From the NCBI RefSeq assembly GCF_003334335.1, contig NZ_QOWQ01000022.1: a DNA stretch of 64,000 nucleotides; one strand, given 5' to 3'. Shown piece by piece: positions 13,579 to 43,794 of the stretch. The position numbers were made by a program, and so were the translations under genes. Within the stretch, counting starts at the first letter, position 1, and each line of letters opens with the position of its first letter. The stretch is from Escherichia coli. GTDB taxonomy: Bacteria; Pseudomonadota; Gammaproteobacteria; Enterobacterales; Enterobacteriaceae. The notes beneath the pieces were generated by a model. That model was not told where the DNA came from. It made no database searches and saw only the letters and a list, made by a program, of their open reading frames with translations.

Positions 13579-13863
13579 ATGACCAAGTCAGAATTGATAG
13601 AAAGACTTGCCACCCAGCAATCGCACATTCCCGCCAAGACGGTTGAAGATGCAGTAAAAGAGATGCTGGAGCATATGGCCTCGACTCTTGCGCAGGGCGA
13701 GCGTATTGAAATCCGCGGTTTCGGCAGTTTCTCTTTGCACTACCGCGCACCACGTACCGGACGTAATCCGAAGACTGGCGATAAAGTAGAACTGGAAGGA
13801 AAATACGTTCCTCACTTTAAACCTGGTAAAGAACTGCGCGATCGCGCCAATATTTACGGTTAA
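13579..13863 (+). CDS. ihfB: integration host factor beta subunit, 94 aa
   Basis: ORF 13579..13863(+); [11 protein letters not shown]...; followed by terminator hairpin. Confidence 0.97.
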
Positions 13864-35460: not shown

Positions 35461-35588
35461 GACGAGGTTCCATTATGGTTACAGAAGGGAAGTCCGCTAT
35501 CAGGGTAACGGGAGATTTACAAAATTCCAACTATTACTGATGAAAACGCAGGCTGTTTTTGCAAGACGTGAGATTGCTCTGGAAGGTA

Positions 35589-35619
35589 TAAAAAAAACAG
35601 GACCAAAGTCCTGTTTTTT
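35589..35619 (-). terminator. intrinsic terminator after ompF (hairpin flanked by A-run and T-run, potentially bidirectional)
   Basis: AAAAAAAA-CAGGAC-CAAA-GTCCTG-TTTTTT. Confidence 0.7.
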
Positions 35620-35644
35620 CGGCATTTAACAAAGAGGTGTGCTA

Positions 35645-36733
35645 TTAGAACTGGTAAACGATACCCACAGCAACGGTGTCGTCTGAACCTACGCCCAGTT
35701 TGTTGTCAGAATCGATCTGGTTGATGATGTAGTCAACATAGGTGGACATGTTTTTGTTGAAGTAGTAGGTTGCGCCCACTTCAAAGTAGTTCACCAGATC
35801 AACATCACCGATACCTTCTACGTCTTTCGCTTTAGATTTGGTGTAAGCGATGGACGGACGCAGACCGAAATCGAACTGGTATTGCGCAACTAACAGAACG
35901 TCTTGCGTTTTGTTGGCGAAGCCGCTGGTGTTTGTAAATTTATTAGTGATCGGCGTAGCGTTACGGGTTTCACCGTAGTTCGCTGCCAGGTAGATGTTGT
36001 TCGCGTCGTACTTCAGACCAGTAGCCCACTGTTCAGCTTTTTTACCGTTGCCAAGAGGTTGAGCTTCTTGCAGGTTGGTACGGTCAGCTGCACCATAAGC
36101 ACCAACGATACCAAAGCCTTCGTATTCGTAGCTGATAGAACCGCCAACACCGTCGCCGTTAGAACGGCGTGCAGTGTCACGCTCGTTTTTACCCAGGTAC
36201 TGAACAGCGAAGTTCAGGCCATCAACCAGACCAAAGAAGTTGGAGTTACGATAGGTAGCAACGCCGCCAACACGACCAACGAAGAAGTCATCGCTGTATG
36301 CAGTATCACCACCAAATTCTGGCAGCATATCGGTGTAACCCAGTGCATCATAAACCACACCGTAGTTACGGCCGTAATCGAAAGAACCAACGTCAGCGTA
36401 TTTAAGACCCGCGAATGCCAGACGCGTTTTGTTACCAGTTTGAGCGTCAGCGCCTTCAGAGTTGTTACCCTGGAAGTTATATTCCCACTGACCATAACCG
36501 GTCAGATCGGAATTGATTTGAGTTTCCCCTTTAAAACCAAGACGGGCATAGGTCATGTCGCCATTGCCACCGTAACTGTTTTCACCGTTACCCTTGGAAA
36601 AATAATGCAGACCAACAGCTTTACCGTACAGATCTACTTTGTTGCCATCTTTGTTATAGATTTCTGCAGCGTTTGCAGTACCTGCTACTAACAGAGCAGG
36701 GACGATCACTGCCAGAATATTGCGCTTCATCAT
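35645..36733 (-). CDS. ompF: outer membrane porin F, 362 aa
   Basis: ORF 35645..36733(-); signal peptide [23 protein letters not shown]-terminal VGIVYQF. Confidence 0.98.
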
Positions 36734-36960
36734 TATTTATTACCCTCATGGTTTTTTTATGACACCTGCCACTGCCGTCAATAAGTTCTGTCAATAAAAA
36801 TTTACGGAACTATTGATGAGAGTTTGGTGTCTTTATGTGTCTGCAGGCATCTTTCCATTCAAACTAACGTTTCGCTACCGTGAAAGTGCTACAAAGATAA
36901 AGATTTGGTTTCAAAAAGAAAAAATATGTAACCAAAAGTAAAATTTAAGGAACTTTGTGA
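36734..36960 (-). promoter_or_regulatory. ompF 5' UTR and promoter with OmpR-binding region (F1-F3 boxes)
   Basis: minus-strand sequence TTTACTTTTGGTTACATATTTTTTCTTTTTGAAACCAAATCTTTATC...TTATTGACGGCAGTGGCAGGTGTCATAAA matches the ompF regulatory region as I recall it; the 600-bp intergenic region is long for this genome. Confidence 0.7.
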
Positions 36961-37293
36961 ACACCGTCATATTTCCATAGAGACGTGATGATATTTACAG
37001 CAATTTTAATCTATTTATATGATTTCCTTATATTTAAATTAACTAAACGGAAATTTTGTTTCTGATGGAAACTTTATCGACCTGGCACAAAATCTTCTTT
37101 CAGACATCCAGAATGCCAAAAAATAGTATGAAAATTGTGCTATTAGCTAAGAAAAAACTAATCCGCAATAAGAATGCGGATTAGTTTTTGCGCGTAAATG
37201 TTGCAATGTAATATTCCGTAACAGGATGATCGTTATGGCGGGGTTGCAAATAGATTGCTTGACTTAACAAACAGATAACTTGACAGAAAAGAT

Positions 37294-37321
37294 AAAAAAA
37301 GAGCCAGCGGGCGCTGGCTCT
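37294..37321 (-). terminator. intrinsic terminator after asnS
   Basis: minus-strand hairpin GAGCCAGCG-CCC-GCTGGCTC followed by TTTTTTT. Confidence 0.7.
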
Positions 37322-37334
37322 TGAAGACGCTAAA

Positions 37335-38735
37335 TTAGAAGCTGGCGTTACGCGGAGTACGTGGGAACGGAATCACATCACGTACGTTTTGCACGCCAGT
37401 TACGTAAGCAATCAGACGTTCAAAACCAAGACCGAAACCTGAATGCGGAACAGTACCGTAGCGACGCAGATCGCGATACCACCAGTAATCTTCTTTATTC
37501 AGGCCCATTTCCAGCATACGCTCGTCCAGCACGTCCAGACGTTCTTCACGCTGGGAGCCACCAATGATCTCACCGATGCCCGGAGCCAGAACGTCCATAG
37601 CCGCAACGGTTTTACCGTCTTCGTTAAGGCGCATATAGAACGCTTTAATATCTTTCGGATAGTTTTTAACCACTACCGGTGCTTTAAAGTGTTCTTCCGC
37701 CAGATAACGCTCATGCTCAGAAGAGAGATCGACTCCCCAGTAAACCGGGTTTTCAAACTTCCTGCCGCAGTTTTCGAGAATGGTCACTGCGTCGGTATAA
37801 TCCACCTGCGCAAAATCGGCTTCAATGAAGCGTTCCAGACGTGAAACGGCATCTTTATCTACGCGTTCAGCGAAGAATTTCATGTCGTCAGCGCGTTCTT
37901 CGAGAACCGCTTTGAAGACATATTTCAGCATGGCTTCAGCCAGACCCGCAATATCGTTCAGGTTAGCAAACGCCACTTCCGGCTCCAGCATCCAGAATTC
38001 CGCCAGGTGACGGCTGGTGTTGGAGTTTTCAGCACGGAAAGTCGGGCCGAAGGTATAAATTTTGGACAATGCGCAAGCGTAGGTTTCGCCGTTCAACTGG
38101 CCAGATACGGTCAGGAAAGACTCTTTACCAAAGAAGTCTTTGTCGAAATCCACTTTGCCCTGATCGTTACGCGGCAGGTTTTCCAGATCCAGCGTAGAAA
38201 CGCGGAACATTTCGCCTGCACCTTCGGTATCAGATGCGGTAATCAGTGGCGTTGAAACCCAGAAGAATCCCTGCTCGTTAAAGAAGCGATGCAGCGCCTG
38301 CGCCAGCGTATGGCGAACGCGCGCGACGGCACCAATCAGGTTTGTGCGCGGACGCAGGTGAGCGACTTCACGCAGATACTCAATGCTGTGGCGTTTTGCC
38401 GCCATCGGGTAAGTGTCTGGATCTTCAACCCAACCAGCAACTTCAACCTTGCTGGCCTGAATTTCAAATTGTTGCCCCTGGCCCGGCGACGCCACGACTT
38501 TACCCGTCACAATGACCGAGCAGCCGGTGGTCAGACGCAGGACGTCTTCATTGTAATTGGGCAGAGAATTATTGATGACAGCCTGTACAGGATCAAAGCA
38601 GGAACCGTCATAAACGGCGAGGAAGGAGATGCCAGCTTTTGAATCTCGGCGGGTACGTACCCATCCGCGCACGGTGACTTCGCTGTCAACGGCTACACGG
38701 CCCTGGAGTACGTCGGCTACAGGCACAACGCTCAT
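37335..38735 (-). CDS. asnS: asparaginyl-tRNA synthetase, 466 aa
   Basis: ORF 37335..38780(-) trimmed to [14 protein letters not shown]. Confidence 0.95.
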
Positions 38736-38870
38736 AATATTCTCTCTGTTAATAGTCGGAAAAAATAAACACTTGTCCACCCGTAAATGGGGGGATACCT
38801 ATGTTACCTGGCATCTGCAATCAGACAAGCAGAATTCGCAAATGCAGCGAAAGATTTCGGAATTAAAGGT

Positions 38871-38895
38871 AAAAAAAGGGAGCCGATTAGCTCCC
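38871..38895 (-). terminator. intrinsic terminator after pncB
   Basis: minus-strand hairpin GGGAGC-TAATC-GGCTCCC followed by TTTTTTT. Confidence 0.7.
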
Positions 38896-38903
38896 TGATG
38901 ATA

Positions 38904-40106
38904 TTAACTGGCTTTTTTAATATGCGGAAGGTCGAACGCTTTGCGCAGCGCCCGAACAAACGCTTTATCATGGCAGATAGTTTTGCCAGGGCTGTCAGAA
39001 AGTTTCGCCACCGGTTTACCGTTACACTCTACCAACTTAATGACAATATTCAGGGGTTTTACCTGGGGGATATCGCAGGTCAGGCGAGTCCCAATACCAA
39101 AACTTAATTGCACGCGGGAAGAGAAGTGGCGGTATAGCTCAACCGCTTTGCGTAAATCCAGATTGTCAGAGAAAACCAGCGTTTTACTCTGTGGATCAAT
39201 TCCCAGCTTTTCATAATGTGCAATGGCTTTTTCACCCCATTCAACCGGGTCGCCAGAGTCATGACGCAGGCCCTGATACCGACTAGCGAACTCGACACCG
39301 AAATCACGCAGGAAAGCATCCATAGTGATGCAGTCGGTTAATGCAATGCCAAGTTGGTCGGGATACTCTTCCAGCCAGGCAGCAAGTGCAGCTCGCTGGC
39401 TGTTGGCTAGATCCGGGCTGATTTGCTGATGTGCCTGGAACCATTCGTGTGCCTGTGTTCCCATCGGCGTGAGGGAAAGCCGACGCGCCAGATCGTAGTT
39501 GCTGGTGCCCACAAACCAGGATTCCTGTTGCAGACGCTTAACGATGGTTTCTTGTACTTCGCGAGAAAAACGGCGACGGGTGCCAAAATCCATCAGATGG
39601 AAGCGCGACATATCAAGACCGGCGGTTAACGCCGAGAAGTCGACTAATTTGCTTTCCAGCGTGTCGAGGGCTTGCGCAACGTCGGCCTGCGGTGAGCGAT
39701 AGCGATGTACCATTTCACTGATAACCGCCAGCAAAGGAACTTCCCAGAGGATGACTTCACGCCACGGGCCGCTTAAACGAATATCCAGCTTGCCATTATC
39801 GTTGGACACGGTGACTTGTTCCGGGTTAAAGCGGAACTCGCGTAACCAGTTAAGATAGTCGGCCTTAAAGAAAGGCAGGGCAGAAAGCCACTGATATTCA
39901 TCATCCTGCAGGCGCAGGTGCTGCATCGCCTGAACCTGTTCACGAATAGCATCGGCATAAATACCCAGCAGATCGTCACCTCGGCAACGAAACTCCGCCG
40001 CGACATGCACATCGTAATAGTGATGAAACACGGCTTGCTGCATATGCAACTTATAAGCATCTGTATCCAGCAACGAGTGCAGAACAGGAGAAGCGAATTG
40101 TGTCAT
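38904..40106 (-). CDS. pncB: nicotinate phosphoribosyltransferase, 400 aa
   Basis: ORF 38904..40154(-) trimmed to [20 protein letters not shown]. Confidence 0.93.
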
Positions 40107-43026: not shown

Positions 43027-43794
43027 TTACCCCTGTTTTCTCAGGCGAGTTTCAGATTCACCACGTTGCATCACCCGTTGCAACACCTCCGCTTCCAGCT
43101 CCGCTAATCGCACCGACCCTAATCGACGCGGACGGGGGATATCCACTGTCAAATCCAGACCAATTTTTCCCTCTTCAATTAACAGCACCCGGTCAGCCAT
43201 CGCTACCGCTTCGCTCACATCATGCGTCACCAACAGTACGGTAAAGCCGTGCTCCTGCCAAAGTGACACAATCAAATCCTGCATCTCGAGTCGCGTTAAG
43301 GCGTCCAGCGCCCCGAGCGGTTCATCAAGCAACAATAATCCCGGTCGATGAATCAACGCTCTTGCCAGCGCCACTCGCTGTTTCTGCCCGCCAGAAAGTG
43401 CGGCAGGCCATTCCCCTGCGCGATTCTCCAGTCCTACCGCAGCCAACGCTCGACGTGCGGCATCGCGCCACTGGCCTTTAAGGCCTAACCCAACGTTATC
43501 AATCACCGATTTCCACGGTAGCAGACGCGCATCCTGAAACATCATTCGCGTGTCTTCCTGAATTTCAGCCAGCGGTGTGGTGCCCGCTAACACATCGCCT
43601 GCGGTTGGCGTTTCCAGACCTGCCAGCAGGCGCAGCAGGGTACTTTTGCCACCACCGCTGCGGCCCACCACCGCCACAAACTGACCTGCCGGAATATGTA
43701 AATCCAGTTGGTTCAGGACGATATTTTCCGCGTAATGTTTGCTTACTGCATTGAGCAACAATGGCGTGCCCTGGTTCAGACGAGCAGTATTCAT
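43027..43794 (-). CDS. ssuB: aliphatic sulfonate ABC transporter ATPase, 255 aa
   Basis: ORF 43027..43794(-); Walker [10 protein letters not shown]. Confidence 0.95.

Follow-up and report, generated by a model that had tools for sequence, protein, structure and literature searches.

The asnS-ompF intergenic region of this Escherichia coli genome occupies exactly positions 36734-37334 of the window (the whole 64-kb stretch of DNA that was analysed), and its 601 bp raise the question of what so long a spacer contains and why its length is kept. Both flanking genes lie on the minus strand, and the ORFs and RefSeq annotation give the gene order pncB-asnS-ompF-aspC, the same as in K-12. An earlier note had read the spacer as the regulatory region of ompF, carrying OmpR boxes, the asnS terminator, and the target of the antisense RNA MicF, and had proposed alignment to the K-12 ompF regulatory region as a check. 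When this alignment was made, the spacer proved to be 100% identical to that of K-12 MG1655 (NC_000913.3, 986983-987584) except for one A fewer (601/602 positions); the sole difference lies in an A-run of the leader, which is A7 here (36752-36758, minus strand) and A8 in K-12. The K-12 identity bears out the core of the earlier reading, and it makes us nearly certain that the region is the canonical E. coli ompF promoter-regulatory region with its 5' leader, lying downstream of the asnS terminator. Judged by sequence, it agrees with K-12 in its weak core promoter and conserved leader, in all four OmpR sites, and in the MicF target (Table 1).

Of 5426 complete E. coli genomes, 5425 carry the spacer, with an identity of 90-100% (at least 95% in all but 34 records). 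Among the roughly 38 intergenic gaps in the 950-1000 kb interval of K-12 none is longer, and the next in size measure 405 and 355 bp. One genome per species was then scanned with a 22-mer spanning the ompF Shine-Dalgarno sequence and start codon; it was matched exactly in at least 120 species, and 85 of the matched loci have asnS upstream. These 85 loci fall into three length classes: 66 from Enterobacteriaceae with spacers of 518-629 bp, 14 from Pantoea/Erwinia with spacers of about 300 bp, and 5 with spacers of 724-1214 bp. The description of a spacer of about 600 bp as unusually long therefore holds for its chromosomal surroundings but not as a quirk of the strain, since the length is kept in 66 Enterobacteriaceae species. 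The 22-mer also matched contigs assigned to Candidatus Dependentiae (a MAG, L021) and Chryseobacterium sp. 18061 (L107), which are most likely contaminating or mis-binned enterobacterial DNA. The GC content of the spacer is 26-41% throughout, against about 51% for the window, with a minimum of 26-29% at 36850-37100, over the OmpR and IHF region. The distal part, which had been singled out as AT-rich, is so relative to the window (33-39% GC) but is in fact the least AT-rich part of the spacer.

Table 1. Features of the asnS-ompF spacer and its flanks, in window coordinates; relative positions count from the putative ompF transcription start.
Feature	Coordinates	Strand	Relative position	Sequence or structure	Basis or remark
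asnS	37335-38735	-		stop codon 37335-37337	
asnS intrinsic terminator (predicted)	37292-37322	-		stem 37322-37299 (AAGAGCCAGCG/CGCTGGCTCTT), then T7	terminator scan
OmpR site F4	37222-37203	-	-380..-361	GTTACGGAATATTACATTGC	exact match to RegulonDB site in Table S5 of PMC3945435
Palindrome	37153-37189	both		perfect, 15 bp, 7-nt loop (AAAAACTAATCCGCA ttcttat TGCGGATTAGTTTTT)	folding
-300 block	37143-37136	-	-301..-294	(A/T)TAGCA(C/T)A	conservation profile
Sigma-70-like site	36994-37023	+		TTTACA-18-TATGAT	10/12; points away from ompF, towards palindrome
Distal IHF-consensus match	37019-37007	-	-177..-165	TATAAATAGATTA	one mismatch
CRP-like site	36956-36971	-	-129..-114	TATGACGGTGTTCACA	consensus match; one mismatch to TGTGA-N6-TCACA
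OmpR site F1	36942-36923	-	-100..-81	TTTACTTTTGGTTACATATT	exact match to RegulonDB site
OmpR site F2	36922-36903	-	-80..-61	TTTTCTTTTTGAAACCAAAT	exact match to RegulonDB site; strongly conserved
Proximal IHF-consensus match	36898-36910	-	-68..-56	AACCAAATCTTTA	one mismatch; overlaps F2 and F3
OmpR site F3	36902-36883	-	-60..-41	CTTTATCTTTGTAGCACTTT	exact match to RegulonDB site; conserved
Core promoter (putative)	36842-36877	-		-35 TAGCGA 36877-36872; -10 AAAGAT 36854-36849	read from sequence
ompF 5' untranslated leader	36734-36842	-		109 nt here, 110 nt in K-12	
MicF pairing site (predicted)	36724-36749	-		covers Shine-Dalgarno GAGGG 36747-36743 and ATG ATG start 36733-36728	
ompF	35645-36733	-			ORFs and RefSeq annotation of K-12 and strain 720632

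All four ompF sites in the RegulonDB list of OmpR sites (Table S5 of PMC3945435) were found here, in the right order and with an F4-to-F1 offset of 280 bp that matches the -380 / -100 numbering. The tandem OmpR repeats claimed for the minus strand upstream of ompF are accounted for by F1, F2, and F3, three tandem 20-bp sites that abut the -35 region, match exactly over 36942-36883 (-100..-41), and are conserved in 66 species; the repeat that had been quoted, TTTACTTTTGGTTACATATTTTTTCTTTTTGAAACCAAATC, was placed at 36942-36902 on this strand. The far-upstream site F4, which had been only suspected within 37140-37260, was likewise recovered in that interval, and its half-site GTTAC is kept in 56-62 of the 67 sequences in our alignment. 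Genetic work by Huang et al. in 1994 is said to have assigned F4 a role in repression. We also scanned for OmpR sites with a weight matrix built from 14 non-ompF sites, ompC sites among them. With this matrix, F1 ranked first of 127,962 window positions and F2, F3, and F4 ranked 112-130, and against a genome-wide background the spacer appears 8- to 10-fold enriched for matches. When the background was matched for AT content and the spacer was dinucleotide-shuffled 500 times, the F1 score was reached by only 2 of the 500 shuffles, and the scores of F2, F3, and F4 fell within the noise of shuffled AT-rich DNA; the matrix scan, which the earlier note had suggested as a check, thus speaks for F1 and not for the other three, and we rejected it as a decisive test because just F1 survives. 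Weak discrimination of F2-F4 by the matrix agrees with the low sequence specificity reported for OmpR (PMC3945435), and we identify these three as OmpR sites through their identity with footprinted K-12 DNA and their conservation. A scan for CpxR boxes (GTAAA-N5-GTAAA) returned OmpR-site look-alikes only, and CpxR was rejected.

The transcription start of ompF was placed at 36842 from the literature numbering, with F1 taken as -100..-81, and this placement puts F4 at -380..-361, in agreement with that numbering. The core promoter is nearly invariant across 66 species; its -35 is poor, the sigma-70 consensus scan gave no call there, and the promoter is presumably weak and activator-dependent. 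For the leader downstream of it, folding predicts a long, irregular stem-loop at 36831-36761 and a small hairpin towards the 3' end, and most leader positions are at least 90% conserved in the 67-sequence alignment; a conserved stem-loop of ompF leaders, together with the conserved MicF 5' end and ompF leader, has been described (PMC1489923). Of 5414 E. coli genomes, 757 match the 67-nt leader segment with the A7 run at 99% identity or more. This run adjoins the MicF duplex on its 5' side, and the predicted duplex is unaffected by A7 versus A8; the length of the run varies between genera too.

The micF gene is located outside the window; the MicF sequence was taken from K-12 (2313084-2313176). 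The duplex energy of full-length MicF proved uninformative (-39.5 kcal/mol versus a shuffle mean of -31.5, sd 4.5, with one shuffle at -52.2), after which pairing was restricted to nt 1-33 (GCUAUCAUCAUUA at the 5' end). This segment is predicted to form 25 pairs with 36749-36724 at -27.4 kcal/mol, and the ompF site is the best of 3196 window tiles, with a z of about -4.8. The runner-up, on the minus strand at about 43640-43720 inside ssuB/ssuC (MicF nt 1-34), reaches -26.7 kcal/mol against -27.4 for ompF, and it is probably a chance pairing in AU-rich sequence; duplex energy alone is not decisive, as the margin over ssuB/ssuC is marginal. The long leader had been described as the MicF target, and a check of complementarity had been suggested for 36734-36800. 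The Shine-Dalgarno sequence and start codon are indeed predicted to pair, but the duplex takes in no more than the final 16 of the leader's 109 nt and continues past the lower of these coordinates into the first 10 nt of the coding sequence.

At the other end of the spacer, the asnS terminator was confirmed as a 10-bp GC-rich stem followed by T7 just past the stop codon, spanning 37322-37292 (-17.8 kcal/mol, z -4.4), and about 90% of 66 species keep the stem bases GCCAGCG/CGCTGGC. Further in, a perfect palindrome that resembles a terminator on either strand lies a short way downstream of F4; it folds at -21.2 and -20.3 kcal/mol on the two strands, is flanked by A5 and T6, and forms a stronger hairpin than the asnS terminator. 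The perfect form is limited to the K-12-type allele: 1343 of 5393 E. coli genomes match the surrounding 61-nt segment at 99% identity or more, the commoner class at 90-95% identity comprises 3843 genomes, and in a sequenced member of this class one arm carries two mismatches without compensation. In E. albertii, Citrobacter, and other genera, the palindrome is reduced to a weak remnant. As it is not kept outside the K-12-type allele and shows no compensatory changes, we rejected it as a conserved backup or bidirectional terminator and treat it as what appears to be a lineage-specific accident. In a Cambodian urine isolate (NZ_OZ121091.1, 3501-4530; L128), an IS200C element replaces ompF and the proximal promoter, and homology to the spacer stops beside the palindrome, with the breakpoint at about window position 37149.

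The palindrome also underlies the more durable of two alternatives to a purely regulatory spacer, namely that the spacer hides a small RNA or a small gene, with a transcript ending at the 37153-37189 hairpin. Such an RNA could come from the minus strand, between the two terminator-like hairpins, or from the promoter-like site on the plus strand at 36994-37023, and what speaks for it is that the palindrome forms a strong hairpin on both strands with flanking A and T runs, at which a sigma-70-like site matching 10 of 12 positions is aimed. However, a search of 35500-39000 against Rfam matched zero families even at an E-value of 1, and the RefSeq records of K-12 and of strain 720632, whose spacer is 100% identical, have no annotated feature inside it. 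The perfect palindrome, moreover, occurs in about a quarter of E. coli genomes only and lacks compensatory changes elsewhere. The -10 of the plus-strand site overlaps a conserved IHF-like block, but its -35 lies in poorly conserved sequence, and one promoter-like match was found where shuffles lead one to expect 2.5; we therefore rejected it as the start of a divergent RNA. The sole ORFs in the spacer are 42-aa frames with a TTG start, which were rejected as genes for want of support. Taken together, a hidden small RNA or gene is very improbable.

We read the spacer as a promoter-regulatory region, which leads to its remaining elements. A search across the spacer for the IHF consensus WATCAANNNNTTR, allowing up to one mismatch, gave two matches and none in 37140-37260, so that the IHF sites proposed for this distal interval were not borne out; the matches lie nearer to ompF, at 37007-37019 and 36898-36910. 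We take the published IHF footprints of ompF to lie near -180 and near -60. The distal match is overlapped by a strongly conserved AT-rich block (37012-37046, minus strand), and in 63 of 67 sequences exactly 77 bp separate this IHF-like block from F1. IHF is among the proteins that act on the ompF promoter, and the gene for its beta subunit, ihfB, is found within the window as well (13579-13863, plus strand).

The half-sites of the CRP-like site are conserved across 66 species, with a variable spacer between them. The site shares its position with the CRP footprint of Yersinia pestis ompF at -131..-109 (PMC3050693); for E. coli porins, CRP control has been described solely as indirect, through ompR-envZ (PMC3050693). 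The conserved site could mean direct cAMP-CRP control of E. coli ompF. Further upstream, 59-65 of 67 Enterobacteriaceae sequences share one base at each of five of the eight positions of the -300 block (T, A, G, A, A), and the block keeps a fixed spacing of 76-80 bp to F4 and 123-125 bp to the IHF-like block. The block (TAGCACA) resembles the OmpR half-site F3b, GTAGCAC. We consider it possible, if rather doubtful, that the distal spacer holds an extra cis-element here; the block could be an additional contact for OmpR or another protein that sets the geometry of a repression loop. The -300 block, the conserved CRP-like site, and the palindrome of the K-12 lineage are the modest puzzles that remain.

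Why the spacer is long is best approached through its geometry across species. In the 67-sequence alignment, the core promoter and nearly the whole leader are at least 90% conserved, and F1b, F2, F3, the CRP-like half-sites, 37046-37012, the TAGCACA block, and the GTTAC of F4 are conserved as well. Segment 37050-37125 is barely alignable between genera; despite this, 63 of the 67 sequences keep F4 and F1 276-281 bp apart. The asnS-to-F4 distance, by comparison, varies from 50 to 158 bp. Five loci have spacers longer than the Enterobacteriaceae norm (L007, L030, L033, L044, and L094; Salmonella enterica subsp. arizonae is among them). In four of these five species, an F4-like GTTAC lies 476-493 bp from the ATG (489 bp here), indicating that their extra DNA lies upstream of F4; the fifth has its nearest GTTAC at 470 bp. 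In Pantoea and Erwinia (L011, L020, L023, L026, and others), a spacer of about 300 bp leaves no room for an F4 at -380, and the four loci examined show neither GTTAC nor TAGCAYA at the corresponding positions.

From these distances we infer that the long spacer reflects the demands of the F4-to-promoter module, whose fixed geometry would take up about 490 bp, with only the stretch between the asnS terminator and F4 free to vary in length. The fixed F4-to-F1 geometry fits the published looping model, and the cross-species spacing provides a modest independent argument for it. The weakest alternative, that the extra length is functionless debris such as a mobile-element or repeat remnant and that only the proximal 200 bp or so matter, can point to 37050-37125, almost unalignable between genera, and to Pantoea and Erwinia, which get by with a 300-bp spacer, but it deserves next to no credence given that 63 of 67 sequences keep the F4-to-F1 length to within about 3 bp although the sequence itself has turned over, that F4, TAGCACA, and the IHF-like block keep fixed spacing, that repeat families and IS remnants were looked for in the spacer and none were found, and that published genetics give F4 a role in repression, as in the model in PMC3050693.

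For a regulatory region of this layout, the four-site looping model of ompF has been stated in PMC3050693 and PMC6970295, and OmpR-P binding and DNA looping at our locus are carried over from published footprinting and genetics of K-12, where the sequence is identical (model in PMC3050693). At low osmolarity, OmpR-P would fill F1 and F2, and loosely F3, at -100..-41, bringing RNA polymerase to the weak promoter. When osmolarity is high, additional OmpR-P would also occupy the weak distal site F4 at -380..-361; F4 would then interact with F1-F3, looping out about 280 bp with IHF bending the DNA between, and the promoter would be shut off. In parallel, MicF, made from the ompC-micF locus elsewhere in the genome, would pair with the ribosome-binding site and start codon, and translation would be blocked.

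Compared with known systems, the K-12 ompF region (F4, F1, F2, F3; IHF; 110-nt leader; MicF target) has the same flanking genes, OmpR sites, terminator, and leader, and differs by the A8 leader run in place of A7. The ompC/micF region likewise has three tandem 20-bp OmpR sites (C1-C3) directly upstream of a weak promoter, but these three sites come without a distal repressing site or loop in the model of PMC3050693; that locus encodes MicF, whereas ompF here is the MicF target. Pantoea and Erwinia conserve the 22-mer from the Shine-Dalgarno sequence to the start but have the spacer of about 300 bp, and the four loci examined lack the -300 block. Y. pestis ompF keeps F1-F3 (PMC3050693) and has a leader that resembles those of other enterobacterial ompF genes (PMC1489923), yet it is reported to be without F4 and without repression at high osmolarity (PMC3050693). 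The short Pantoea and Erwinia spacers, with no room for F4 at -380, parallel this reported absence.

The region is therefore an already known one, the textbook ompF control region with wild-type OmpR boxes. It is one of the founding examples of control by two-component systems and by antisense RNA, and its occurrence in E. coli adds nothing new. On the practical side, the asnS-ompF spacer serves as a SNP marker for E. coli source tracking (PMC5007776), and mutations in the region lower OmpF and accompany carbapenem resistance, an example being the C>T change in F3 described in carbapenemase-producing lineages (PMC6970295). In the genome analysed here, F3 is wild type, without the C>T change.
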